From: Eledone cirrhosa
Taxonomy: Eukaryota
Reading direction: 5' to 3'
Assembly (NCBI GenBank): GCA_964016885.1
Contig: OZ024746.1
Location: 33,046,001-33,110,000, forward strand
DNA: 64,000 nucleotides
The notes below the pieces were generated by a model. The model saw nothing but the letters and a program-made list of their open reading frames with translations. It had not been told where the DNA came from and ran no database searches. Below are positions 3,951-63,361 of this stretch, in pieces. Positions within the stretch are counted from its first letter, which is position 1. The number at the start of each line of letters is the position of its first letter. The position numbers were made by a program, and so were the translations under genes.

Positions 3951-4136
3951 TAACGAAGGAAGTGTGGTAAGGAACCATATATGTATACAGAGGTACATGC
4001 ACACATACATATATGTACGTATGGATTCACCGAACATTTATTATAATGCTCGGTGTGTCTGTAAACAAACATCCCAAATTAAGCCGTACAGTGTCTAGCA
4101 ATCATCGTTGCTCATTTGTTCAACGCTGACAAAGGA

Positions 4137-4179
4137 ACGCTGTACTAGTTTCAAGCTTATTAGCTATCGTCAGCAACGT
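4137..4179 (-). ncRNA. Minimal type I hammerhead ribozyme
   Basis: ACGUUG-CUGACGA-U-AGCU aata AGCU-U-GAAA-CUAG-UA-CAGCGU; second partial copy at 4228-4243. Confidence 0.75.
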
Positions 4180-4419
4180 ATACATTCCTGCCAGATGATT
4201 GAACGTCTGAAAGTATATACTTTCCTTACGCTGTACTAGTTTCTGTACGTCTGTATACATATATGTATGTACGTATACATACTTATATACATGTATACAT
4301 ATATGTATGTACGTATACATACATGTATGTACGTATACATACGTACTAAGAGTGAGAAATGAAATTTTGTTTCATTTTTTCCGTTTATATATATATATAT
4401 TAGTTCAAAAAGGACAAAC

Positions 4420-6778: not shown

Positions 6779-7327
<549 letters not shown>

Positions 7328-7333
<6 letters not shown>

Positions 7334-8307
7334 CAAATAACGAAACGAAATTAAATTTCGTTTCGCTTCTAACTCACTTTTGTATGACTGACGCTTAAAC
7401 AATTAAGTTAAAGTGTACATCTACATATGTATACGGAAGTATTAGTATGCATATAAATACACACATGTATACACATGCACATGTACTGAGCTTTTCACTA
7501 GACACTTTACAGTGAGTGTCAGCTAGTCTGTATGTAACCACACAGACGGACCGGGTTTTAGAGTCATACGAGTTTTCAAGGAAACACATTTCCTCTATTC
7601 TCCAGAGGGCCAGACAGGAATATTGGACTCTGGAGAATAGAGGAAATGTGTTTCCTTGAAAACTCGTATGACTCTAAAACCCGGTCCGTCTGTGTGGTTA
7701 CATACAGACTAGCTGACACTCACTGTAAAGTGTCTAGTGAAAAACTCAGTACATGTGCATGTGTATACATGTGTGTATTTATATGCATACTAATACTTCC
7801 GTATACATATGTAGATGTACACTTTAACTTAATTGTTTAAGCGTCAGTCATACAAAAGTGAGTTAGAAGCGAAACGAAATTTAATTTCGTTTCGTTATTT
7901 GTTTTTATCGTTTCCGCTGAACCGGTGCGTACAATGACTCACGTTCTATGCAAATTAGTCTACCCACTACTAATTTTCATAGAAAAAGCATATAACGATA
8001 TGTGCTTTTACAATTCTCCAGAGAAGCCGGAAGATGGGTAAATATTGCTGATGAGATGTAATAACATCGAAACTAGTCCAATATTCCTGTCTGGCCCTCT
8101 GGAGAATAGAGGAAATGTGTTTCCTTGAAAACTCGTATGACTCTAAAACCCGGTCCGTCTGTGTGGTTACATACAGACTAGCTGACACTCACTGTAAAGT
8201 GTCTAGTGAAAAACTCAGTACATGTGCATGTGTATACATGTGTGTAGTTATATGCATACTAATACTTCCGTATACATATGTAGATGTACACTTTAACTTA
8301 ATTGTTT
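7328..8307 (+). mobile_element. Inverted plus tandem non-coding repeat with an HHR (PLE terminus or retrozyme-like)
   Basis: 7328-7627 inverted vs 7628-7908; third direct copy 8097-8307; short related fold-back at 62123-62225. Confidence 0.8.
8041..8085 (+). ncRNA. Canonical minimal type I hammerhead ribozyme
   Basis: AAUAUUG-CUGAUGA-GAUGU aata ACAUC-GAAA-CUAG-UC-CAAUAUU; 7-bp stem I, GUC cleavage triplet. Confidence 0.9.
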
Positions 8308-8327
8308 ATATATATATATATATGTGT

Positions 8328-8613
8328 GTATTGTTATACTTTGGGAGGGTCATGTTGCCCATAAGAAACACACGCACCAGCTGCTTTCACTTCAATTTAT
8401 TATAATAAATTTATAAATTTAGGAATTTATAAATTTCCGGTTGGTTGGTTCCACAACCAGATGGTTGTTTATATATTGTCAAAGTTTTTTCGTCACACAT
8501 TCTGTGACACTCTTCAGTGACTGGGGATTCTTTTCTTTGTTTTTGTGCCTCTCCTTTGTTCTGTCCTACGCCATCTTGTTTCTGTCAAATTCTGCTAAAC
8601 AAATTCAGAAACG

Positions 8614-8617: not shown

Positions 8618-8652
<35 letters not shown>

Positions 8653-8654
8653 TA

Positions 8655-9222
<568 letters not shown>

Positions 9223-12449: not shown

Positions 12450-12455
<6 letters not shown>

Positions 12456-13195
12456 CGTAAAATAAGAAAATTATAAAATTAACTTACTTACTAAAAAATC
12501 ACTTCCAACTAATTAGTTTCTCGAATGGAGTAAATATATTTTCCGAAGAAACATATCGAAAATCATTCCGTCATCAGGAAAGTCTTTTTCCGTATAGGTC
12601 TCCAGGCATAGCGAGGACACTGGAAACTTATTAAAAAAATAATTCAGTGGAATGGAAATAGCGATGCGTGGACTGGATTCCAAGCCATTGAGAAAATTAC
12701 TGCTTCTACGTCAGTGACAAATTCAAAAAGAATCAATCACGTGACATCGAGGTCAATCAGTGGAAAGCGAGTGGTTATTAAGACAGCGGCTAGCGTAGAA
12801 GCAGTGATTTTCTCAATGGCTTGGAATCCAGTCCACGCATCGCTATTTCCATTCCACTGAATTATTTTTTTAATAAGTTTCCAGTGTCCTCGCTATGCCT
12901 GGAGACCTATACAGAAAAAGACTTTCCCGAATGGCTTGGAATCCAGACTTTCCTGATGACGGAATGATTTTCGATATGTTTCATCGGAAAATATATTTAC
13001 TCCATTCCAGAAACTAATTAGTTGGAAGTGATTTTTTAGTAAGTAAGTTAATTTTATAATTTTCTTATTTTACGTCTCTCATATTATTGTTCTGCAACCC
13101 CATGCATTAAACCACATTGTTAATAAGACAAAACCTATATATTTGCTAGCATTGGTATGCATCTGTGTGTATATAAATGTTACTAGATATAAATT

Positions 13196-13198: not shown

Positions 13199-15381
<2,183 letters not shown>

Positions 15382-16573
15382 ATGCTGTTTTGTTACTATT
15401 TCTCTTTTCCTCCCTTTGCTTTCGTTCCCTCCTTCCTTCGATTTCCCAGTAACTTATCCAGTTATGACGCCCTGGGGTGAAGTGGTATCTTGTCTTTAAA
15501 GCGTAGAAATATCCTAGACCCCCAGTAGACAACTGATGAGGAGAATCCCCCCATGCTCTTGCTTTCTTCGTATTCCCACTGCATTTTAAATTACCTTATA
15601 ACAACTACACAGCCATTCTATTCTCCATATATATATATATATAGTCTTAAAGACTATTTCATGAAAACTTTCAGTGGAGATGGTCACGGTTGGATTTCAA
15701 TCATCAGCAGAGCTCAACTCGATAACCAGGACTCTCACAGATTTATATGCCAAAAAGGGAATTTTAAAACTGGCTAGTTCACCATCATGCGTGATTATGA
15801 AAAACGCACATGAGGAAATATATATATATATATATATATGGAAAGTTATATTTAAATTGTTGGGTTAACAACGAGTAAATATTTATAACTGATATAAAAG
15901 CACTCAACAAGTATTTGGAGTATATTTATGATATTAAATAAATGGAAACTATATTTATAAAACCATATTTATTTCGTTATATATATTTCAGGGATATCAT
16001 ATTAACAATATGTTATGCCATCTTCAGACAAAATACAATATAAACAGTCTTATAAATAAATAGATACGACATACCTTTCAATCACCTTGCATTTGGGAGG
16101 TTGATTTGGTAGTAAAAAATGTGGACAGTTGTAAAAAGAAAGAGATAAAGAGAGAAAGAAAGAGAAACGAAGAAAAAGAAGAAATGCATGTGACTAAATA
16201 GAGGGATATAGAAAGATAGATAAAGAGAAGAACTTCATGTAAAGAAACAGAGAGAAATATATATAGAGAGAGGAAAAAAGAAAGAGATAGATAGAGATAG
16301 ATAGAGAAATTAGGAAGTTGAGTATCGGTTGATACATTTATTTATTTATTTAATTATTTATTTAGCTCTAGTATTAATGTAAAGAGAGATGTATGTAGTT
16401 AAGAGAGAAAATAGCCGTTATATAGAGAGAAAAAAGAGAGAATGAAAAAGAGAAAATGAAACAACCAGACATAAACGATGCAGAATTTAAAACCGCTATG
16501 TTTTATCCGTAGAAAATATTAGTTCGTATAAAACAGGCATTATAATGTAAGTACCAGTATTCATGAATGAGAC

Positions 16574-18153
16574 ATGTATCTTGACAGGGTGATACAGCAA
16601 ATTAAAAACTTGAGTTGTTTACCTAACCTGAGCTTGTGGAAGGGAACTGGTGAGGTTGTTGAGTGGTTTAAGCAAATTAAATATAACAATAATAATAAGT
16701 TTATTCAACTTGATATTGCTAACTATTATTCTTCCATTACCCCTAATCTACTAAATAAGGCACTAAATTACGCATTCAAACATACAGACCTAACTAGCAA
16801 TGAAATGCACATTATATTATCGGCTAGGAAAACATTGATAGAATTTAATGACCAACTATGGACCCGAGCAGATAGAGATAACAATTTTGACATTACTATG
16901 GGATCATCCGACTCAGCTCAGGTAACTGACCTTGTGGGCTTATTTTTAATCAATTCGCTGCATAGGAAAATACCTGGTACTACCGGAGGTTTATATAGAG
17001 ATGACATGCTTTTACTTATTGATAATAATAACTCTGAACTAAATAGAAAAAGAAAACAAATTACACAATTTTTTAATCACTTTAATCTAAAAGTAGAAAT
17101 TGAGAATAGCCATAGAATAGTCAACTTCCTAGTTATAACATTAAATCTCAACACTTGTCTTCACTATCCATTTCACAAGTTGAATGAAAACTTAAACTAT
17201 GTCAGCTTTAACTCTAACCACCCCAAATCTGTTAAAAATACTATAGTAAACTCTGTTCAATCACGTATCTCTAGAATCTCATCTAATAAAAAGATTTTCG
17301 ACGAAAAAGCCCATTATTACAATGAAGCGTTAGCTAGAGCAGGATATAGTGATAAAATGATGTACATAGATAATGATAAACAAATTAAACAAAATAACAA
17401 CTATTTTAATTATGGCCACAACCTTAACAACTATAATAGAAAGCATTACAATAATTCCAAAAGCCATAAAAGAAATAGAACTAGGAATATAATATGGTTT
17501 GCCCCCCTTTCTCACTAAACATTAAAACCCACATTGCTAAACTATTTTTTAAAGCTCTCGATAATCGCTTCCATAGAACACATAGGTATCACTCAATTTT
17601 CAATAGACATACTATAAAACTAACCTACTCATCCACCAAAAATTTAGCGCAAAATATTAATAGAATAAATAACAGGAACTTAAAACCTAGCGATAATAGC
17701 ATAAATAATATCCAAGTTAACAAATGTAACTGTAGAGATAGATCTAAATGTCCGTTAAATAACAACTGCTTAGTTAAAAATATAATATACAACTGTAATG
17801 TTAAAACGGACGTTAATTCTTTTAACTACGTTGGTTCTACATCGACGGAATTTAAACTTCGCTATAACAACCACAAGAATTCTTTCACAGATCCATCCAA
17901 AAAATCTTCAACATCACTATCAGGCGTACTCTGGCAACTTAGGCATGATAACGTTAGATATTCGACGACTTGGAATATAGCTTCAAGGGGGATTCCTTTT
18001 AATTCATCCTCTGAGACATGTGACCTCTGTGCGGAGGAGATATTCTTTATACTAAAATCTAAAAATTCCCTTAATCTACGGACAAATTTATTCAGTTGCT
18101 GCAGACATAGATTGAACTCAACGTTTAAATATAAATTTAAATTTAAAATGTAA
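16574..18153 (+). pseudogene. PLE RT-GIY-YIG, one frameshift near 17505
   Basis: DIANYYSSI, TMGS, GLYRDD; NIIY..YVGST; CDLC..E; CRH. Confidence 0.85.
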
Positions 18154-21713: not shown

Positions 21714-24680
21714 ATGGGTTAAATAACTACCTTATTCGAGTGGCGCCGGTAAGGTATTGTCAGCCATTGAAAAGAAATATGGAGAGTCGATCTAACAGCA
21801 CTAGGGTTAGAGCCCCTAATTACACTGTTCGAGGAGAGTGGTATACAGATACTTGCGTTCCAAGAACACAGGATTCTACACGATGAGCCCGTGAGGAGTG
21901 TGATGATCGGGAGGAAGAGCCAGCTCATCACTACATCGGCAGTGAAGAACACAACAAATGCTGCAGTAGGAGGAGTGGGTTTTGTGTTCAGTGCAAAAAC
22001 CAATCTGTTGGTGAGGGAAATAATGCCTATCTCCCCGCGAGTGTTGAGGGTGACCTTCAATGGAAACCCAAGACTGACAGTCATCTCAGCCTATAGTCCA
22101 ACCGAGGGGGACAGTGATGTGAATGCGGAAGAGTTCCATGAGGAGGTGTGTAGAGCTGTCAACACCACCCAGGCACACAATATCCTGCTTGTATAGGGGG
22201 ACTTCAATGCACATCTGAGTAAGGAGGGCAGTGAAGATCCTTGCTGGTACTTCCATAACAACACCAACCGAAATGGAAGACTACTGAGAGACACCCTGCT
22301 GGAGGCGAACTTGATGGCGACCAACCTAAGGTTTAGGAAGAATCTGGGGAAGATGTGGACCTACATCTCAGATATGCACCTGTCCAAGTCCCAGATTGAT
22401 TTCATTCTGGTGAGGAAAAAGTGGCGGAATAGTGTTCTGAACACGGAACCATACAGCTATTTCAGTACACTGGGTAGTGACCACCGGCTTGTTATGAGTG
22501 AGGTCCGCGTGAGCTTAAGAAAGAGCAAGGCTCAGCCCCGGAGAACAATCTATGACTGGGGAGCTTTCAAGGAAGATGATAAGCTACAGGAGAGGTTCAC
22601 AGTGGAAGTGAGAAACAGGTTTAGTGCTCTGTGTGGAGAGTCAGAGGAGAGAGAGATTGGATGCACTGAGGAGAGTGTGACGAGGAGGTACGGGCACTCC
22701 ACCAATGCAGTGGCGGAAGCAAGTGAAACATTGGTGCCGAGGAAAAAGAACACAGGGAAGCACGTCAGCTCTGCAAACCCAAAAGTATGTGCAGCCAGAG
22801 AACACCTGAAAGCTGCCAGGGACCAATTCTATGCTGATCCTACGGAGGAGAGGATGGAGACTGTGGAGGTGATGAGGGAAGAGCTCTGTACCGCTTACAC
22901 TGAGGTCAGAGAGGAGGCACTGATATAGAAGATCAGAAGTGTGGAGAGAGCGGTTGACAGATCTGGATGTAAGGAGAGCTGGATGATCATCAACGAGATC
23001 ATAGAGAGGAAGAGAAGGTGTTCGAGTCAGATCCAGGGAACGGGGCCCGAGGATAGGAAGAGGAAATGGCTAGACCATTTTAGGACCCTACTAGGAGAGC
23101 CACCCTCCACAGCCCAGAGCACTGGGGAGATCAGGCGGCTGTTTGAGGAACTGGATGTTGAGACAGAGCCCTTCACCAGAGAGGAGCTTCAGAGAGCCAA
23201 GAAGAGGATCAAGGAGGTCAAGGCTCATGGAGAAGATGGAGTGGCATCAGAGGTGATGAAGAGGTGTGATTTTGATGATATCATCCTGGGGTTCTGTAAC
23301 GGGGCACTGGAGAAAGGAGTTGCCCCGAATCAGTGGAGGATCAGTAACATCGTCCCAGTGCCAAAGAAGGGAGATCTCTCTAACACTAACAACTACCCGG
23401 GGATCTCACTGACGTCACTTGTGGCAAAGACCCTCAACAGGATGATTCTTAACAGGATCCAGCCTGAGATGGAGAAGAAGCTCAGGGACAACCAGAACGG
23501 CTTCAGAGAGGGTAGATCAACCACCAGTCACATCCTGATGCTGAGGAGGATATTAGAGGGAGCTAGAGCAAAGTGCCTTCCTGCGGTCATGGTTTTCATT
23601 GACTTTAGGAAGGCCTTTGATTCTGTGGACCGTTACTGCCTGATGAAGATCTTACAGGCTTATGGAATCCCCAAGAGGATAGTGGACCTGATATCACTGC
23701 TCTACACCAACACCAAAGCCCAAGTCATTACACCTGATGGGATGACAGAGTTCTTTGAGATACTGGCTGGAGTGCTCCATGGAGATACATTGGCTCCCTA
23801 CCTTTTTATCATCGTAGTGGACTATTCTATGCGCCTTGCACTGGAGAAACACCAGGACTCTGGCTTTACTGTAGCACCGGCTCAGAGCAGGAGAGTTAGG
23901 GCGAAAAAGGTATCTGATTCTGAATTTGCCGACGACATAGTTTTGGTGACAAATACAGTGAAGGAGGCAGAGGATTTGATGCGGGAGGTTGAGACTGTGT
24001 CGATGAGTGTGGGGCTGAGAATGAATGAGACTAAAACAAAATATCTGGTAGAGAATGTTGAGAAGCCAGAGGGGATCACTAATGTAGGCGGGAAGCCGCT
24101 GGAATTGGTTGAGGACTTCCTGTATTTGGGAGCAAAGATTGGGAATACGGAAGATGATGTCGTTGAGAGGAAGAGCAAGGCCTGGGCGGCGTGCCACAGC
24201 TTGAGATCGGTGTGGAAGTCGGACCTTCGTAGAGACCTGAAAATCCGCCTCTTCATTGCTGTAGTGGAGTCTGTGCTGCTGTATGGGTCTGAGACTTGGA
24301 CACTGACCAAGAAACTCACTCAGATGGTGGATGGGTGCTACACGAGAATGCTGAGGATGGCTCTGAACATTAATCAGTATACACTGAGGATGAAAAACTC
24401 AGAGCTGTATGGGAGCATCCCAAAAGTCAGCTCAAAAGTGACACAGAGGAGACTGATTTGGCTGGACATGCTCACCGACATCCAGAGTTGACATTGCACT
24501 CAGTGCTCCTTTGGGAGCCCCTACATGGACACACTAGAAGAGGAAGACCAAGGTTAACGTATGTTGATGCCCTAAGGACAGACACTGGTCTGTTGGAGAT
24601 GCAGGACATGGCAGCGATAATGAGGGACAGAGACCGCTGGAGAGAACTCGTCCATGGATCTCGGGAATTTTACCCGCCTT

Positions 24681-33198: not shown

Positions 33199-36179
33199 TT
33201 TTCTTTATTAACCACAAGGGTTTACATAAAGTAGACATTAAGGACAGTACAGGACAATACAGGACGGTACAAATGGGCATTTCTGCGTGTAAAAAAAACA
33301 GAGGATGTAATAAAATAACAAAGAAAAATTCCCCAATAGGGGGGAGACTTCCGAGGGACATTTGTGGAGAAAGCCCATTAAAAGGCCACAGTGACCCTGA
33401 CCACCAAGGCAAGTGCCCTCTCCCAGTTTTCCACCTTTAATTTACAGATACGTTCTCAGAGTAGCCCCATTCACTCGGGCCATTCTTGCTTCTCTCACCC
33501 ATCTTTCAACAAAATGCTGGGAAGAGAGCACTTCCCTCTCTACTCTGATTTTCCTTTTCAAATGAAATTTGAAAAGGTCAATCAGGGCATCACCGAAGAG
33601 GTAAGTGCTCGTCTTCAGCCCTTTCAAACGTGTCCACCATACTATCTCTTTCGCCATGGCCACCAGACAGATAAAAACTGCCTGCCCTTCCCGGCTAAAG
33701 GAAGAGGGCGGGGCAATCCTCACGATGGACTCAAATGATAGCCGGATCCGTCCTACACGTGACAGCAGGTGTTCGACATAAACCCACAAGTCAGGAATGC
33801 TCGGACACTGGACGAGTGCGTGCAGGACGGTTTCGTCGCCCTGCGCGCATCTCGGACATGCCCGGCTTACGGCACCTCCATGCCTGTAGAGTTTATTCCG
33901 AACTGGCAAAGCTCCCCGGTAGCACTGCCAGGCCAGGGATTTCTGGAAGTTGTCCATAGGCCTCGGCCCGAAAGTCCTTCCGAAGAGATTGGCTAGTTGA
34001 TTTTCGTCGACGCCTAGAGTTTCTCCAAGTACGTCGTCGCTCTTCTCCTCCACTAATTCTCTATAGAACGCCAAGGTGGAGTTTCCACCGATCACCTTGC
34101 CCGATTGGTCGAGGGCTGTGAGCGCCTGAAGACATTCCAGTCTCCAAGCGCTCCCTCTCGGTCTTCGCTTGACCCAGGACTGCAGCTCCGTCAAGGAGAC
34201 GAGCTGGGGAAAGACGTGTCTAGCAAACGGCGACCACACCTGATCACCGTCGAGGCAGAGGTGGAGATGTCGTAGCCTGAGCGCGTGTCTGCGCATCATC
34301 AGCCACGGCATGCCCAGCCCTCCACGTAGCGGGTGTAGTCAGCAGATGGACCATTTGACCATCGGAGCGCGTCCCTTCCACAAAAAGCGAAAGAGCAAAC
34401 GCTCCAGCGCAGTCAGGCGGGGCTTAGGACAAGGTACGACGGTCAGGCGGTAGTAGATGACGGACGCGATGTACGCGTTAGCCACCTCCGCTCGACTTTT
34501 CAGGGATAGCTTCCTCTCGGCCCATTTCTGGGTGAGAGAAGCCACCCTGCTCGTCACCTCGTCCCAGTTTTTGTCCGTCTGGAGGTCAGGACCGAACCAG
34601 ACCCCTAGCAATTTAACCGGTCCGTCCGTCCAGCGCCCGACGACGCTGTTGGACGGCATGGACCTGCCTCTCCAGGTACCGAGCTGCAGGCCCACTGACT
34701 TTTCCTGGTTGATCATTGCTCCTGTCACCGCTTCGTATTCTCTTAGTGTAGTGCCGATCGCCTCGATGTGTTTGGCGTTCGACACCACTACGGTGACATC
34801 GTCCGCATATGCTGACACGGATCTTCGGAATCATAGTTCGCGCGGGACCCCCCTCAACGTCTCAAGTTTGTGCAGTAATAGCTCGAGAGTCAATACGTAC
34901 AAGAGGGACGAGAGGGGACATCCTTGGCGGACCGAGCGCATGATGTTGAACGGTTCCGAAAGGTGACCGTTCACTCTCACCACAGAGCAGATGTCGCTGT
35001 GCATGGCAGCGATCCAGCCTCTGAAGACGGGCCCAAAGCCAGCCGCCCTCAGGACTGCCGCTAGGTAACGATGGTCGACTCTATCGAAGGCTTTCGACTG
35101 ATCTAAATTTATCAAAGACCCACCCGTGCCAGGTTCCCTAGCTACCCTCTCTACGATGTATCGCATGAGGTGGAGGTTGTCGTGGATGGATCTGTCAGGA
35201 ATGGCGCATGTCTGCGCCTCTTCCACCAGACCACCAACGTCAAGCGCCAACCTCTTTGCTAGCACCTTGGCCAAAATTTTGAACTCTGTGTTTAGCAGAG
35301 TTATGGGCCGGAAATTATCTATGTTATCCCCCTTGTTCGGATCCTTTCTCAGCAGCGCCACCGCTCCTCGGCTCACAGAACTGGGAATTCTCCCGTTCTG
35401 TTGCCAGTTGCAGTAGACGTCCGCTAAGAGGCCTCCGAACAAGTCTGGCATTTGTACGTAAAGTTCATAGGGCAGACCATCCAAACCAGGCGATTTACCC
35501 CTTGTGCAGCCAGTCATTGCCTCCCGTACTTCAGCGGCTGTTATCGGCTTTTCGCAACACTCCGCCTCAGTGGCCGAGAGCCGCGGCAGTCCGTTGAGGT
35601 AGACACTAAAGTCCATCCCTCGATCCGGCCCGCCACTGCCCCCGAACAGTTGAGCGAAGTGTCGCTGAAAAGCTCCACACATTTGCCCGGGATCGAGTAG
35701 CATGCGCCCCTCGTGGTCCACCAAATACCGGATCGTGGCTTTGTTTCCACGACGCGCCTCCGCCACTCGGGCCCATTGAACAGCTTCCGTCCCCTCGTGT
35801 CTGAGAGCACGTACCCTAGCTCTGACAACACAGCCTTCGTTGTTAGAGAAGGGAGGGAGAGAGAAGGGAGGGAGAGAGACAATTTTCTCTCTGCTGTAGT
35901 GACGATTGAGGAAGAAGAAGACGGAATGAGTGGAGTGACCTATGAAAATTCATTTTCGTAGCCATGTTTTTTTTTGTTTAAAATAAATATTGGGCACAAA
36001 ACCCCAATAAGCGGTTATTTAACCCCGAAGGGCCAAATAACGGGCAGAAAGACCCCTCTCACGAGGAGGAGGGTGTTTTTGTCTACAATTTGGTTAAAGT
36101 TTTAAACAATTTACAATTGTTATAGCGGTCTAAATTTACAATACCTTACAGAGCCGAGCCTCCGTCAGCCATAGCATTC

Positions 36180-38313: not shown

Positions 38314-38730
38314 GTAGGAGGTGAGTTTTATTGTAGTACAATAAGGCAATGCAGATATCGGATAAGAAGCACTCTACAGTTTGTAGGACTGGAGTATACA
38401 TAATATATAAGATCAAAAGATGGTTAAAAGAGTTCCATGTATTTTATTATGCGCATTTCAAAAACAAATATCATCATGCAATAACATTTGTGTTTTCATC
38501 AGATAAAATAGGAAGACATGATATGGAGGTTAAAAACACTTGTGGATAGTGCAGTTTTAAATCAACATGATATGTTGATTTAAAACTGCACTATCCACAA
38601 GTGTTTTTAACCTTCATATCATGTCTTCCTATTTTATCTGATGAAAACACAAATGTTATTGCATGATGATATTTGTTTTTGAAATGCGCATAATAAAATA
38701 CATGGAACTCTTTTAACCATCTTTTGATCT

Positions 38731-38737
<7 letters not shown>
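38311..38737 (-). mobile_element. Fold-back PLE terminus; hairpin with ~165-bp arms and a 3-nt loop
   Basis: 38401-38568 vs 38572-38737; left side extends ~90 bp to (TA)n. Confidence 0.8.
38630..38700 (+). ncRNA. Hammerhead ribozyme (mirror at ~38439-38510 -)
   Basis: UAUUUUAU-CUGAUGA-(long stem II)-GAAA-UGCGCA-UA-AUAAAAUA. Confidence 0.8.
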
Positions 38738-38809
<72 letters not shown>

Positions 38810-38821
38810 TATAGATAGGTA

Positions 38822-41687
38822 AATATACACGGGTGTGTATGATTGTGTATAGAAGATTATATTAATAAGAGGAATTCCAACTTTGTCTGATTTACTCGTT
38901 TTATTTACAATCCTTTAAAATATATATAATGGTATTATAATGAAATAGTATGATAGAATATTAAATTCTAAGTGTTAATTGAACAAGTACTTTCATGCTT
39001 TCGCAATCTTCAGGTTCATGATATGTGGTGACAGTCGAGTTTGCAATTTTCAACTGTAATGAGATGGGTAAATTTCCTACCTTTTATACATTTTATACAG
39101 AGAAAAGTGGCTCCAGAATGCAAAGCCCTGTAAACTGTATTTCGACCAATCAGTGTGTAGTTTCACTGAATTACTACAGCTGATTGGTTTAAGCGTCACG
39201 GCTGGTTGAACATGCTAACGACCAATAGTCATATCCAACGTATCAATTGTTTTGCTTTTTTGAAATGATGAAAATAGCATTTTCTATTAATCATCACCAT
39301 CAACATCACTTTTATTATTATTATTATTGTTGTTGTTGTTGTTGTTAGTGGTCGTGGTCATAGTGGTAGTAGAAGTAATACCCCTAGGCGTTATTATTGT
39401 TCATTTAGCTTGGGTTTGAATTTATCAATAAAATTCTTTTCTTTGATTTTTCTCTTGATTTCATTTGGGCTGTGTAATTTGTAGAATGGGAATATTATAA
39501 ATATTCCCTGACCACATGTTTCCAGGTGGCCGCTTAGGGGTATCTGACGGACATTTGGGTCTCTGATTTGTTGACGGTGTACCCGTGCACGTTCCGATAG
39601 TGCATTTCCAGTTTGACCGACATATAGTTCTTCACAATTCGGGCATTTAATGCAGTAAATTAGATTTCTGCTTTTGCAGTTCATATTTGCATTTGTGAAT
39701 ATTTTTCCAGTTTTTGTTTTCATATATTGACCGGCGTGTATGGATTGACATGTGCCGCATCGATTATCATTGCATTTAGATACAGTGAATGATTGGTCTT
39801 TGTTGTTAAGGTCAAACTTTGCTTTTGTTAGCAATTGCTTCAAATTTTTTGGCTGTCTTTTACTAAGAGTCAAAGATCGATCTGTGATTAAGCCTTTTAA
39901 TTCATTACTTTGAGCAATGATCGGTAGGTTTGCTTTGGCAGTGTTGAAGATATTCTGGTGACATGGGTTGTGTGTCATTATAAATGGTATGACCAGTTCT
40001 TGGTTTCTTCTTCTTTGGGTTGTTCTAAGTTGTTGTATAGGTATTTTTATAGCCCGCTGTATGCCATTTTCTATAAGTAGAGATGGGTATTTTTGTTTGA
40101 GCAAAAATTCTCTTAGTTCTGTTAGGCGTTTGTACCTGGTATTCGTATCTTCTACAATGGTACAAATTCTTCTGGCTAGGCAGTATGGGATGTTGCGTTT
40201 TGTATGAGGTGGATGGCACGACTTAAAATTCAGATATTGATGGGTGTCTGTGTGTTTATAATATATATCCGTGGTAATGGTGGTGTCGTTTTTGATTATC
40301 ATTATATCTAGGAATGGTAATTTGGTCCTACTCATCTCTTTTGTGAATTGGAGAGATGGGTGTAGGTTATTCAGGAGGATATTGAACTCATCCAGAGTAT
40401 CTAGAGATTCTGTCCAGATGATGAAACAGTCGTCAAGGTATCTCTTCCAAGATTTTTCAATGTACTTTCTAAAGTCAGTACTATATTTTTCCTCTATTTC
40501 TTGGTAGAGTTGTTGTTCTAAGTATCCCATTACAGAGTTCGCGTAAACGGGAGCAAACTTCGTTCCCATCGCTGTGCCTCTAATTTGGATGTAATTCTTT
40601 CCATTGAAGAAGAAAGTGTTATTTTCCAGAATAAGTTTAACTGCGTCTAATATAAATGGCGCTGTGAATCTAATGGGAATCACTTCTCTATGTTTTTCCA
40701 CCCAGTATTTAACCGCCTTTATTCCTAAATCATGTGTAATGTTGGTGTAAAGGCTTACCACATCAAAACTGAGTAGAAGTGAATTCGTTTCCGTGGTTTT
40801 GGGAAGATGGGACAGGAAGTCGATATCATCCCGGATGAAACTGGGTATGTGAATACATAGTGGTTTCAAAATAATGTCAACAAAATTGCTTAGACGGTGA
40901 GTGGGGCATGTTGGACCAGCTATAATAGGTCTAAGTTTTAAGTCTTTTGGGTGTAATAATTTAATGTACTCACTGTTTTGTTCTCTTACTGCCAGTTGTA
41001 TTTCTTTTGACTTGTGAACTTTCGGTAGGCCATACAGGTTGCTGGGTTTCGGCTCAAAATTGGTGATGTAGTCTCTTTCCTTATCAGTAAATGAGTTGTG
41101 GTATTTTGAAGCCAGGTTGTTGATCTTCTTCATGATGTTGTGGTCTATATTTGACGGTATTTCATGATAGAATGTTGTGTCTTTCAGTTGTTCCTCAACC
41201 AAATCCTTGTAGTATTCAGTATCCATTATAACAACTGCACCCCCTTTATCTGCTTGTTTAATTATTATTGTTTTATCATTTTGTATACGTTTAAGTGCAG
41301 ACATTTCTGATTTGTTAATGTTTGGCCTAACATTAGTATTATGTCTAAGAGGAAATTTAGACAGGATGTCAATGTATTGGTCGAGATAGATATTTCTTCC
41401 TTTTGGCGGAGTGAAATTTGATTTATTCTTTACTAGTGATTCATCACTCTCATTATTTTTATCAGCGAAGAATTCTACAAGACGTAATTTTCGACAGAAT
41501 TCTTGGGTATCCTCCTTCAGTTCTTGGTGGTTGACTGTTGGAGTCGGTGTGAATTTCAGTCCTTTTGACAGAATTTGCATTTCATCATTGTCAAGATCTC
41601 TTTTAGATAAATTAATTATTTTAGGATCTACGTGTACAGCTGTTTTGGGTATGTTTCCTCCTGGAGTTTTTCTTTTTCCGGTTTTAA

Positions 41688-41690
<3 letters not shown>
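38822..41690 (-). mobile_element. Neptune-like PLE, 5'-truncated, in (TA)n
   Basis: Uninterrupted ORF plus 3' pseudo-LTR with HHR. Confidence 0.9.
39394..41580 (-). CDS. PLE reverse transcriptase + Cys-rich linker + GIY-YIG endonuclease
   Basis: KGLKF, ADKG, YGLPKVHK, RPII, FDVVSLYTNI, GTAMGT, RYLDD; C..RC.TC; LIY..C..C..YVGQT. Confidence 0.93.
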   Translation of the reverse strand: MQILSKGLKFTPTPTVNHQELKEDTQEFCRKLRLVEFFADKNNESDESLVKNKSNFTPPKGRNIYLDQYIDILSKFPLRHNTNVRPNINKSEMSALKRIQNDKTIIIKQADKGGAVVIMDTEYYKDLVEEQLKDTTFYHEIPSNIDHNIMKKINNLASKYHNSFTDKERDYITNFEPKPSNLYGLPKVHKSKEIQLAVREQNSEYIKLLHPKDLKLRPIIAGPTCPTHRLSNFVDIILKPLCIHIPSFIRDDIDFLSHLPKTTETNSLLLSFDVVSLYTNITHDLGIKAVKYWVEKHREVIPIRFTAPFILDAVKLILENNTFFFNGKNYIQIRGTAMGTKFAPVYANSVMGYLEQQLYQEIEEKYSTDFRKYIEKSWKRYLDDCFIIWTESLDTLDEFNILLNNLHPSLQFTKEMSRTKLPFLDIMIIKNDTTITTDIYYKHTDTHQYLNFKSCHPPHTKRNIPYCLARRICTIVEDTNTRYKRLTELREFLLKQKYPSLLIENGIQRAIKIPIQQLRTTQRRRNQELVIPFIMTHNPCHQNIFNTAKANLPIIAQSNELKGLITDRSLTLSKRQPKNLKQLLTKAKFDLNNKDQSFTVSKCNDNRCGTCQSIHAGQYMKTKTGKIFTNANMNCKSRNLIYCIKCPNCEELYVGQTGNALSERARVHRQQIRDPNVRQIPLSGHLETCGQGIFIIFPFYKLHSPNEIKRKIKEKNFIDKFKPKLNEQ

Positions 41691-41734
<44 letters not shown>

Positions 41735-41738
<4 letters not shown>

Positions 41739-42300
41739 ATAATAATAAATTTGAAGACTAAAATCCAAAGAGGGTTCGATAAGGACAAATATATATAAGA
41801 TAAGATAAGAACCGTAGAGTAAATATTTATTAAAATAACAGATTAAAGTTTAAGCAAAGAATCGCTGCTTTCACCCTTAACAGGATCTTCTGAAACTAGA
41901 TAAGTCAATCTGTGAACGCAGAAGTAAATATTTCAAAAAACGTTGCAACCGAAGGAAGACAGGAAGACGATACTTTGGTTCGTGGAAACGTTCCCTGGCA
42001 AAGAACGGCAAAAAACTAAGATAATACGTCATTGTTTGGTGCGTTGAAAACAATTACACGCAAAGACAAAACCACGTTTATGGTATAAATGAAGTCGTAG
42101 ACTAATATTCTATTAGGTGGTTCATGGAGACGTTCTCTGGCAATGAACGAAAAAAAAACGAAGATAATACGTCATTATTTGGAGCGGTGAAAACAATTAC
42201 ACGCAAAGACAAAACCACGTAAATGGTATAACTGAAGTCGTAGACTAAAATTCTATTTAGGAAACCGAATGATTCTCGGCTTCAGAGTTAAACATAAAGT
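41735..42300. repeat. TA-flanked repeat with a 2 x ~141-bp tandem duplication
   Basis: 41977-42117 ~ 42118-42261; left end matches 3791-3950. Confidence 0.65.
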
Positions 42301-53449: not shown

Positions 53450-55990
53450 TATATATACATACACATACATCCAGATACACACATACATACACACACACAC
53501 ACACACATATACACATACACCCACACACAGAGAAATGGCCTCCAAATATATATATATATATACATACAGACACATATATTTTTTCCATAATATAAGAAGT
53601 TGGGACAGTGAAATTAAAATACAAGTCATTCTGATCACATTGAGTTCTTCATGTAGATTGGGCCCCGCAACCGACAGTGGTGAATTCTGTGTGCGCATAT
53701 ATATATAGATATATGTGTGTGCACGTGCAGGGTTTAACATGGATGTGTTGGTCACACAAAGGCATGGTCTGTCAACGAATAAACCTGATTCTACAGAATT
53801 GGTCTCTGGTCTTTAATAGTAGTGATTCCGTGCGTATGTGTGTTTATATTTTATGACAATTCTATTGGGGTGATAACCCGTTTAGTTTTGGTTTAAATTT
53901 GTTAAGGAATAGATTTTCTTTGTTTATTCTTTGTTGCTGTGTGAACGAATCTGAGCACTTGTAGAAGGGAAAGATTTTAAAGTTGGGTAGTGTCATTCCT
54001 GCGCAGTTCGCAATATGGCTGCTCAAGGGGATTTTTCTTGTGTTAGCGTCCCGGATTTGTTGGCGGTGGATGGTCATTCGTTTGCGTAATGAGGTGCCCG
54101 TCTGTCCTATGTAGTTGTGTTTGCACCCACCGCAAGTTATTGCGTAAATCAAGTTCTCCGAGTTGCAGGTGAAATTGTTTTTTACTGTAAATGTTTGGCC
54201 ATCTTTGAATGTAAATGTTTGTCCTTCAGTGAGGTAGAGGCACGTTCCACAGTTTGTTCTACCACATTTGGTAACTGTAGGGTTGAGGATTGGTTTGGGT
54301 ATATTTGTTCCAGTGAGAATGCGTTTAAGTGATTTGGGTTGTCTTTTACTTTTAAGGATCTTGTGTGTTTCAAGAATAGACTTCATTTTTACATCTTTAA
54401 GTAGGATGGGGAGGTTTTTGTGTAGGTGATCAAACATTTCGGTATTTCTGGGGTTGAAAGTGGATACATATGGCAGGGTGTTTAGTGTGGTTTTCTGTTT
54501 TGGATTGTTAAGTTGATGGGGATTTAGGTGTTTTGCCCTGTCTATTCCATTGTTGATTATTTCAAGTGGAAAGGCTCTTAAGATAAGGGTGTCTTTTAGT
54601 TCCTTTAGTCTTTGCTCCCGTTCAGGTGGATCTGATACTATGGTACATATACGTTTGGCCAAATTGTAAGGAATGTTAAGTTTTGTATGTTTTGGGTGAC
54701 TTGATGTGAAAAAGAGGTATTGCTTGGAATCTGTGGGTTTATAGAATATATCTGTATCTAATTTCCCGTCTATTACAGAGATGAGAATATCCAAGAAGGC
54801 TAATTCCTTAGGATTGGATTCCATTGTGAATTGTATGTTATTATCTATGTTGTTTATCATGTTTTTAAACGTAGTAAGTGAGTTCATGTCTTCTTGCCAT
54901 AGGATAAAGCAGTCATCTAGATATCTTTTCCAATTGGCTTTGAGGTGTGTGTGGAAAGAGTCTCCAAATAAGAGAAGAGACTGACTGTATATTTGTTGTT
55001 CATGGAATCCCATGACTCGGTTGGCATATGTGGGTGCTACTTTCGTGCCCATTGCCGTACCTGATACTTGTCTGTATGTTGAACCATTGAATGTGAAGTA
55101 GTTATTTTGTAGGATAAAGCGGAGTCCGTCAGTGATAAAATCTGTGTTGATGCGTGTCGGTATTTCTGATGGGTGTGTGTTAAGCCAGTATTGGACTGCT
55201 GTTATTCCATAGTTGTGAGGTATGTTTGTGTAGAGGTTTATTACGTCAAAGGAGACAAGAATTGTATTTGCACTTACTGTTTTAGGGAGGTGTTTCAGCA
55301 TGTCAAGGTCATCTCGTATGTAGCTCTGTATATGTTGTAGAAAGGGTTTCAGTAGGATGTCCAGAAAGTTGCTAAGTCTGTGGGTTTCACATGTAGGGCC
55401 TGCTATAATTGGCCTGAGTTTTAGGTCTTCTGGTGGTGTTAGTTCAATGTAATTGTTGGTTGAGGTGTCACATGCATCGTTTATGGGTTTACATTTGTGG
55501 AGTTTCGGTAAGCCGTAAAAAGAGCTTGTATTGCATTTGAAGTGGCTTATATAGTTAAACTCTTTTGTGGTTAAGCTGTTGCGGTATTTATTCAGTAAGG
55601 TCAAAAGGTTCCCCATTGTTTTGGTGTGTTTGTAGTTTTCTGTTTTTTCATAGTATGTGTTGTTTTCTAAAATGTTAAGTGCGAGGGTCCTATAGTAGTC
55701 CGTATTCATAATGACAACAGTACTGCCTTTATCGGCTTCTTTGATAGTTATCTCAGGGTTGTTTCTAAGTGTGAATAATTCTTCCCATTCGTGTGTAGAT
55801 AGGTTTGATTTCGTGTGTTTATTTGTAATTTTTTCATAGGGAAAGTTGGTGATGTGTTCGCAGTACGTGTCCAGTGCTTTATTTCTTCCCTTTTGTGGGC
55901 AGAAATTGCTTTTATTTCTAACCAGTGATTCGTCTTCAGTGTTGGTGTCGTTGTGGAAGAATTCCGTTAGTCTCAGCTTTTGAAAGAAAT
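52743..55990 (-). mobile_element. Second Neptune-like PLE, 5'-truncated
   Basis: ORF 53862-56018 plus a 3' region ending at (TA)n; the link to the 3' terminus is inferred from position. Confidence 0.8.
52881..52928 (-). ncRNA. Hammerhead ribozyme, U3-A8 core variant
   Basis: AACAU-UUGAAAA-GAUGG..CCAUC-GAAA-CCGG-UC-AUUUU. Confidence 0.6.
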
Positions 55991-56018
55991 CCATCTGTTT
56001 GTTGTTTCTTTTTTTCAT
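53862..56018 (-). CDS. PLE RT + GIY-YIG (the first ~10 codons are probably flank)
   Basis: ADKG, YGLPKLHK, FDVINLYTNI, GTAMGT, RYLDD, LIY..C..C..YIGQT. Confidence 0.92.
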   Translation of the reverse strand: MKKRNNKQMDFFQKLRLTEFFHNDTNTEDESLVRNKSNFCPQKGRNKALDTYCEHITNFPYEKITNKHTKSNLSTHEWEELFTLRNNPEITIKEADKGSTVVIMNTDYYRTLALNILENNTYYEKTENYKHTKTMGNLLTLLNKYRNSLTTKEFNYISHFKCNTSSFYGLPKLHKCKPINDACDTSTNNYIELTPPEDLKLRPIIAGPTCETHRLSNFLDILLKPFLQHIQSYIRDDLDMLKHLPKTVSANTILVSFDVINLYTNIPHNYGITAVQYWLNTHPSEIPTRINTDFITDGLRFILQNNYFTFNGSTYRQVSGTAMGTKVAPTYANRVMGFHEQQIYSQSLLLFGDSFHTHLKANWKRYLDDCFILWQEDMNSLTTFKNMINNIDNNIQFTMESNPKELAFLDILISVIDGKLDTDIFYKPTDSKQYLFFTSSHPKHTKLNIPYNLAKRICTIVSDPPEREQRLKELKDTLILRAFPLEIINNGIDRAKHLNPHQLNNPKQKTTLNTLPYVSTFNPRNTEMFDHLHKNLPILLKDVKMKSILETHKILKSKRQPKSLKRILTGTNIPKPILNPTVTKCGRTNCGTCLYLTEGQTFTFKDGQTFTVKNNFTCNSENLIYAITCGGCKHNYIGQTGTSLRKRMTIHRQQIRDANTRKIPLSSHIANCAGMTLPNFKIFPFYKCSDSFTQQQRINKENLFLNKFKPKLNGLSPQ

Positions 56019-56779
56019 TTTCCTCGCTATAATGGTTGACTAAGAAATCAATAATGTACTGGAGGTTAGAATGCATCTTTATCTACGTTTTACGGTGTGG
56101 GTTTTCTCATGAAACTCATTTTCTTTCTAAGTATATATTTATAAATAGGGAGAAAGAATCATTCGGAGTGTATGCATGATACTTGTATACAGAGCTATAT
56201 GGAATACATTTTGATAATTATATGGATGTGCAATGTTAGTGTGCAAGAACGAAGAATCATGCAAGCACTGAAGAAGAAAGGAATGCATTGGTATCTTTTA
56301 TAATAGTGATGATAGTGATGCTGGTTAGTAGAGATATTGTGTATAGTGCTCATAATGGTTCTGGTGGAGTATTTGTTGATGGTAAGGCAGTGAAATGTCT
56401 AATGTGGTTTAATGATAACAGTAGTGGAATAGAAGATGTTAGGGGCAGTAAAAGCTTTGGCTTTAGAGCTGTTGCAAGGTTGTAAATTAATAAGTGCCTA
56501 ATGATGACTATTTACAAACAATATCATGATCTTCGTTATCGAAGCTACCGTCACAATAACAAGCACCATCATCAACTTCCATTTGTCGTCATAATCAGAA
56601 CCACACCCACTCGCACTATCATCACCATCGACAACGATAACTCCATTAACGCCACCATCATTTTCATCATCACTATCAAGATCACCGCCTTTCACTACTA
56701 CAGCAGCTAAAATAAACCATACCTTAATCCAATAGTAGCCTTATCACTCCATAATTTCATAGATATTGCTATTTGGCTA

Positions 56780-60468: not shown

Positions 60469-63361
<2,893 letters not shown>

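Follow-up and report, generated by a model that had tools for sequence, protein, structure and literature searches.

What kind of RNA molecule gave rise to the 469-nt repeat described here, and which enzyme wrote it into the genome? The locus lies in a window of 64,000 nt (the whole stretch of DNA analysed, positions 33046001–33110000) within a 3.0-Gb genome that we searched. A sequence-only reading of the window had described, at 7628..8307, a segment A (7628–7908), a segment X, a hammerhead motif and a second copy A′ with a period of 469, and had taken them for a hammerhead-delimited tandem unit. The order and the period were borne out: the direct repeat 7628–7839/8097–8308 measures 212 nt, with 1 mismatch, at an offset of 469. 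A′ is indeed a repeat of A, of which it covers just the first 212 of 281 nt, and the extent given was that of a real right arm, to which a left arm has to be added. The complete element spans 7327–8308 and consists of two head-to-head arms of a non-coding 469-nt unit, with a (TA)n tract on either side. If unit position 1 is the base directly 3′ of the predicted cut (window 8079), and the most frequent unit of a long array serves as reference, the features are as follows:

7290..7326: left-hand (TA)n tract of the target
7327..7629, minus strand: left arm, unit 466/468 to 299 (0.65 unit), whose outward-facing 3′ end meets (TA)n at site S2 (unit 299)
7626..7629: head-to-head junction, 2 nt common to both arms
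7628..8308, plus strand: right arm, unit 19–469 then 1–230 (1.45 units), ending 3′ at site S1 (unit 230)
7749..7820, plus strand: predicted long hairpin, unit 140–211, directly 5′ of S1
7834..7908, plus strand: interval from S1 (unit 225–231) to S2 (unit 294–299), a 'tail' of ~70 nt
7870..7896, plus strand: predicted hairpin, unit 261–287, directly 5′ of S2
7909..8035, plus strand: X segment, unit 300–426
8036..8088, plus strand: type I hammerhead motif, predicted to cut 3′ of C8078
8309..8323: right-hand (TA)n tract of the target

The inverted arm 7327–7607 is 100% identical to 7628–7908 over 281 nt. As the sequence-only reading had noticed, it ends within 2–4 nt of the predicted cleavage site: the match reaches 7629, equivalent to 8075 and 2–4 nt past the site, and 7627 corresponds to 8077. 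The left arm is without a hammerhead core and the right arm, with its 1.45 units, contains one complete core. In this copy the unit is therefore not bounded by two hammerheads, and the first 18 unit nt are absent before A. Because just one hammerhead is present, the window copy cannot release a circle itself; it is a dead-end product and not a possible source of circles. The proposed lack of protein-coding capacity was confirmed, the circularised unit having no ATG ORF longer than 64 aa on the plus and 22 aa on the minus strand, and no Pfam match was found for the 116-aa stop-to-stop frame at 8055–8402.

The hammerhead comprises stem I (8041–8047/8079–8085), CUGAUGA (8048–8054), stem II (GAUGU/ACAUC), GAAA and GUC (8076–8078), with a short stem III (CUAG) of 2 bp only; 8013–8023 is predicted to pair with 8097–8107, closing the hammerhead arm. 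Rfam HH9 matched 8030–8100 with 31.8 bits, below the gathering score of 52 (E 4.6e-4 for the whole window, 1.4e-6 locally). Across 25 hand-picked variants of three related families (A, B and C), the core was nearly invariant and the stems covaried: 91% of cells were paired, compared with 35–52% in slid controls, and 6 pairs had changed on both sides, which reflects few events because the compared rows are related. The fold predicted for a 469-nt circle had an MFE of −155 kcal/mol (z −9.7), and 0 of 60 shuffles were as low. We infer that the transcript would cleave itself after GUC. For Xenopus, one of nine predicted retrozyme dimers was cleaved in vitro and eight were not, according to the part of that work drawn on here (10.64898/2026.07.22.740005).

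The arrangement recurs throughout the genome. Exact 40-mers across the A–X junction, whose recurrence elsewhere had been proposed as a check, were found 1,029 times, and exact 32-mers of the hammerhead core 1,453 times over many contigs, with 0 matches for either reversed control. Using the X–hammerhead stretch as query yielded 1,051 candidates, and all 40 that were scored were 100% identical over 251 nt. Many arms of 1–7 units are also present. The longest array that we fetched has 49.5 units with a type I hammerhead in each (50 cores), a spacing of 469 in 48 of 49 cases and no ORF inside; a second array has 14.7 units, and a third, at 95.62–95.66 Mb of contig C1, extends over at least 35 kb with ~470-nt spacing, judging by positions among the listed matches. 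Since the long arrays contain block duplications of 2–3 units, unit number is uninformative on rolling-circle copying, and we rejected the long arrays as evidence for it. Two relatives were identified, subfamily B (~467 nt, 88% identical) and the sister family C (~430 nt). A two-armed copy of family C lies in the window at 3975–4390, with a hammerhead at 4130–4187 on the minus strand, and the window also holds a miniature two-armed fragment of the 469-nt family in (TA)n (62121–62224), with an S1 end on one strand and an S2 end on the other. At another locus (L148:2144–4883), a subfamily B element is inserted at the hairpin of an element intermediate between A and B.

By ORF content, Pfam and GC, the unit has no protein, no LTR arrangement and, at 37%, a GC content under 50%, and it occurs both as tandem dimers to multimers and as dispersed mobile copies. 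With all checkable features of the class present, the repeat is almost certainly a non-LTR retrozyme, and as such a further member of a class already known. The hallmark of an autonomous PLE, an RT plus GIY-YIG ORF between pLTRs, was not found, A being joined directly to X. Nor does the outcome that the sequence-only reading had set against itself apply, namely a unique junction with other copies 3′ of an RT ORF: the junction recurs, and there are pure 469-nt arrays without an ORF.

Clues to the enzyme come from the 3′ ends. In a survey that, after removal of 12 duplicate loci, left 119 complete arms, 113 had their 3′ end at S1 or S2, and TA followed in 109 of them; a predicted hairpin lies directly 5′ of either site. 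Family C ends at two matching sites. The two sites were also paired with each other. Among loci chosen irrespective of their ends, 14 pairs were S1+S2, 3 had another end and 1 was S1+S1 (a nested double insertion). Where loci had been chosen by S1, the partner was S2 in 11, S1 in 1, another end in 1 and off the edge in 2; where they had been chosen by S2, it was S1 in 8, another end in 1 and off the edge in 5. A further 80 loci comprised 54 S1+S2 pairs, 0 same-site pairs, 2 with other ends, 7 running off the edge and 17 without a second arm. Pooled, the two-armed copies amounted to 87 S1+S2 (33 + 54), 2 S1+S1 (one of them the nested double insertion) and 0 S2+S2, and S1 was paired with S2 in both long arrays (49.5 and 14.7 units), too. 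TSDs were unreadable in (TA)n, and the five non-TA flanks examined showed no clear pattern. A one-ended tail with inverted 5′-truncated copies is a reported PLE trait (PMC8557442, PMC3846280), and ends with one site per arm are, to judge from their positions, the footprint of this Penelope 'tail'. Two internal 3′ ends, an inverted 5′-truncated arm and an AT-rich target, which together mark mobilisation by a PLE, were all found, and a PLE enzyme very probably mobilised the 469-nt family.

The 5′ ends were spread around the unit, with 122 arms falling into ten bins of 7–15 each (131 further arms: chi-square p 0.053). In two sets, 93 of 115 and 97 of 131 arms crossed the predicted cleavage site, so a linear cut monomer copied once was not the template. 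An arm end at the cleavage site, as in the window copy, did not hold as a family rule and was rejected as such: stops ≤6 nt from the site numbered 4 in 119 encounters, with 2.75 expected. Given this spread and the lack of a clear excess of stops, the coincidence in the window copy is no evidence that copying ran off a cut end. Ends at unit 466–468, which overshoot the site by 2–4 nt, made up 6 of 253 (~1.6 expected, counted post hoc) and represent at most a weak pause.

The nature of the template can be read from what the units of one insertion share. We compared 86 A-like insertions at 24 polymorphic sites, excluding 20 duplicate, nested or poorly aligned loci. Adjacent units within arms were discordant in 14 of 2,183 comparisons, compared to 631 expected from the family pool, and units of opposite arms in 5 of 1,062, compared to 307 expected. 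Each insertion, with both arms and all units, is one haplotype. Variant classes were then scored in 149 of 150 insertions (one mixed A/B insertion excluded, 16 loci dropped beforehand). Rare variants fixed in every unit copy (n = 84) included 40 A>G and 9 T>C changes on the RNA strand (p 9e-6), and single-unit variants (n = 369) showed no A>G excess, with 35 A>G and 50 T>C. The fixed A>G changes were distributed over 23 loci, in 14 of which they were found in both arms; among sites seen in both arms only, 19 were A>G and 7 T>C. One locus (L145) accounted for 10 of the 40, repeated in all units, and has a hyper-edited look. In the window copy, A>G changes at unit 148 and 152 (7757, 7761) recur at 8226 and 8230 as well as in the left arm, i.e. 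in all three copies, and are located inside the predicted 13-bp stem of the hairpin at 7749..7820. The ADAR neighbour preference was not significant (5′ U in 18 of 40, p 0.09).

A strand-asymmetric A>G excess points to an RNA stage, and A-to-I editing is the likely cause of the fixed changes; a strand-biased DNA mutation in the source unit would do as well. In either case, a change fixed in every unit of both arms implies that one monomer was copied repeatedly, either in this generation or in a previous one. We therefore regard a single-monomer template as highly plausible and a covalent circle as its probable form; haplotypes and variants alone do not separate a circle from repeated jumping on a cut monomer. 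Seven variants occurred in both arms yet not in all units (0.3 expected). A single monomer circle does not explain these mosaics, and gene conversion, dimer circles or linear multimers may be their sources.

A PLE is the partner enzyme that the ends suggest. The linkage to a PLE ORF that the sequence-only reading had envisaged was seen at one locus, with no sharing of the unit in 50 PLE loci. The genome contains 10,596 GIY-YIG candidates, of which 150 were scored. Homology of the unit to PLEs was absent from the 50 loci (30 GIY-YIG and 20 long-ORF), separately inserted retrozymes and chance-level matches of 15–30 nt aside, as well as from 6 PLE-like ORF regions in the window; unit 34–48 matched GIY-YIG ORF ends over 15 nt (E 0.26), which we put down to chance. 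Of 238 matches to a variant-hammerhead pattern, 30 of the 100 listed were fetched, and all 30 resembled the sister subfamilies. No recurring PLE partner was present in 26 and 7 unpaired 5′ flanks, and PLE fragments lay somewhere within 29 of 127 retrozyme loci. The only direct joining that we saw (L047:3652–7390) joins an arm of 2.7 units, its end at S2, head to head to 41 nt of unit sequence plus a 5′-truncated PLE, which ends in TA and has a CX4CxxC motif before GIY-YIG, characteristic of the Neptune/Nematis type (PMC8557442). This one case may be a template switch that reveals which PLE is the partner; alternatively, an insertion accompanied by a deletion may have occurred later.

The window itself contains one RT + GIY-YIG ORF and several PLE-like ORFs. 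The former is a 787-aa PLE frame at 39394–41757 (minus strand) with a hammerhead at 39013; head-to-head 3′ ends of this PLE, with a tail on one arm, lie at 8650–9090, 350 bp right of the element studied here. Further PLE-like frames are found at 53862–56039 (−), 16571–18153 (+; flanked by 444-nt perfect inverted repeats), 60653–61579 (+) and 14040–14897 (−), and LINE-type RT frames at 898–2529, 22197–24491 and 33442–35949. The 3′ end of another PLE family (6870–7290) adjoins the left TA tract. In several PLE families (6870–7290, L159, L163–L169, L174–L177), the ends are hammerhead-like, the first core strand being degenerate and stem III being CCGG. Two other inverted pairs, at 38395–38747 and 12450–13080, carry on each arm a hammerhead of another type, with a long stem II and a palindromic stem III.

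Overall, we consider it probable (roughly 0.7) that a young, protein-free 469-nt family was written into TA microsatellites by a borrowed PLE RT-endonuclease from a single, probably circular RNA monomer. Copies with at least two hammerheads would be transcribed and self-cleaved after GUC, and the monomer would be ligated to a circle, with some A-to-I edited. A PLE complex would nick both (TA)n strands and prime two cDNAs, at unit 225–231 and 294–299, one site per strand, as suggested by the observed ends. Each cDNA would pass the cleavage/ligation site, stop near-randomly and join the other head-to-head, the pattern seen in the arms, and some insertions later expanded to long arrays via the DNA-level duplication visible in them. 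PAc of Anolis, which is predicted to be a dimer, starts RT at two internal sites in vitro and extends both target strands at AT-rich targets (PMC11167929). A more specific model, which we put forward tentatively and at slightly worse than even odds, is a PLE dimer on one RNA circle, with each subunit bound to its own start site and target strand and both circling the same edited molecule; the 'optional tail' would then reflect an asymmetry that is obligatory in the integration complex, and the copies would be direct genomic proof of circle templates. The original interpretation of the locus as a non-autonomous hammerhead retrozyme mobilised by a PLE is supported by these sequence data.

With the same family and PLE, a homogeneous array could have been read through into a linear transcript that was copied uncleaved, the hammerhead being unneeded for insertion and arrays being renewed by DNA-level duplication. 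The block duplications and the seven mosaic variants common to both arms are in line with this, as is the finding that PLE RT in vitro copied uncleaved RNA, cleavage being dispensable (PMC11167929). However, editing of a multimer predicts single-unit A>G changes, where there was no excess (35 versus 50, as opposed to 40 versus 9 in all units); rare variants are fixed across the inverted arms of many small insertions, and the hammerhead covaries, so that we regard this template as unlikely. Much the same low probability applies to a cleaved linear monomer on which the RT, on reaching the 5′ end, jumps back to the 3′ end and so makes concatemers of that one molecule. It would explain one haplotype per insertion equally well, and the slight surplus of ends at unit 466–468 could be counted in its favour, but these ends overshoot the cleavage site rather than stop at it, stops at the site are without a clear excess, and the junctions are exact (469 in 48 of 49 spacings).

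It is very improbable, and largely refuted, that the repeat belongs to an autonomous PLE as its ordinary partial-tandem end (pLTR), or that only DNA recombination has spread it as a satellite. Autonomous PLEs in the window do share the footprint (8650–9090) and one copy is joined to a PLE ORF; against this, direct A–X joining occurs 1,029 times, arrays lack an ORF, dispersed copies keep fixed ends in (TA)n and the A>G asymmetry indicates an RNA stage. The reading favoured here, a single and probably circular monomer copied by a PLE enzyme, makes base-exact predictions: starts at unit 225–231 and 299, one per strand, a (TA)n target and one monomer. Circle-templated, PLE-driven copying of retrozymes has been proposed, not demonstrated, in the sources consulted (PMC7229834; 10.64898/2026.07.22.740005), and the origin of the tandem or inverted ends and tails of PLEs has been called undefined (PMC8557442); with these start sites, an assay with one protein and a 469-nt RNA could address both questions.

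In the main texts of openly accessible papers, our literature search returned no octopus hammerhead repeat, PLE twin priming, A-to-I marks in retrozyme copies or insertion footprint of this kind. L1 twin priming likewise gives a head-to-head inversion primed from both target strands. Unlike in L1, both arms here begin at internal sites that are fixed and run through the same sequence more than once, and there is no poly(A). The family resembles the metazoan non-LTR retrozymes of coral, mussel and axolotl (PMC7229834, 10.64898/2026.07.22.740005) in its non-coding tandem units, each with a single type I hammerhead, its GC content of 37%, its dimers to 50-mers, its stable predicted circle and the presence of PLEs in the genome. 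At 469 nt, it exceeds the 150–450 bp given by Cervera and de la Pena 2020 (PMC7229834) and is inside the 51–972 bp of Li, Clavereau and Pollet 2026 (10.64898/2026.07.22.740005). The parts of those two papers drawn on contain nothing on two-armed insertions, fixed internal 3′ ends, (TA)n targets or traces of edited templates in the genome, and no pLTR homologue was found here in 50 PLE loci, compared with 24 of 57 Xenopus families (10.64898/2026.07.22.740005). Chlamys MRC1-type elements are similarly non-autonomous, inserted as multiple copies in head-to-tail order and with pLTR-like ends, but unlike the 469-nt family their 3′ ends are similar to those of their autonomous families, and their clade is reported, in the sections concerned, to be without canonical hammerheads (PMC8557442). 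With EN+ PLEs (PAc, PMC11167929; Craig et al., PMC8557442; Adineta, PMC3846280), the family shares a partial tandem with an inverted 5′-truncated arm, two RT starts downstream of a hammerhead, a one-end tail and AT/(TA)n targets; it differs from them in its 469-nt unit without an ORF and in a tail of ~70 instead of 30–40 nt. Whereas the tail of EN+ PLEs is called 'optional' or 'often at one end' in the passages cited (PMC8557442, PMC3846280), it is present on exactly one arm in 87 of the 89 scorable pairs of the 469-nt family.
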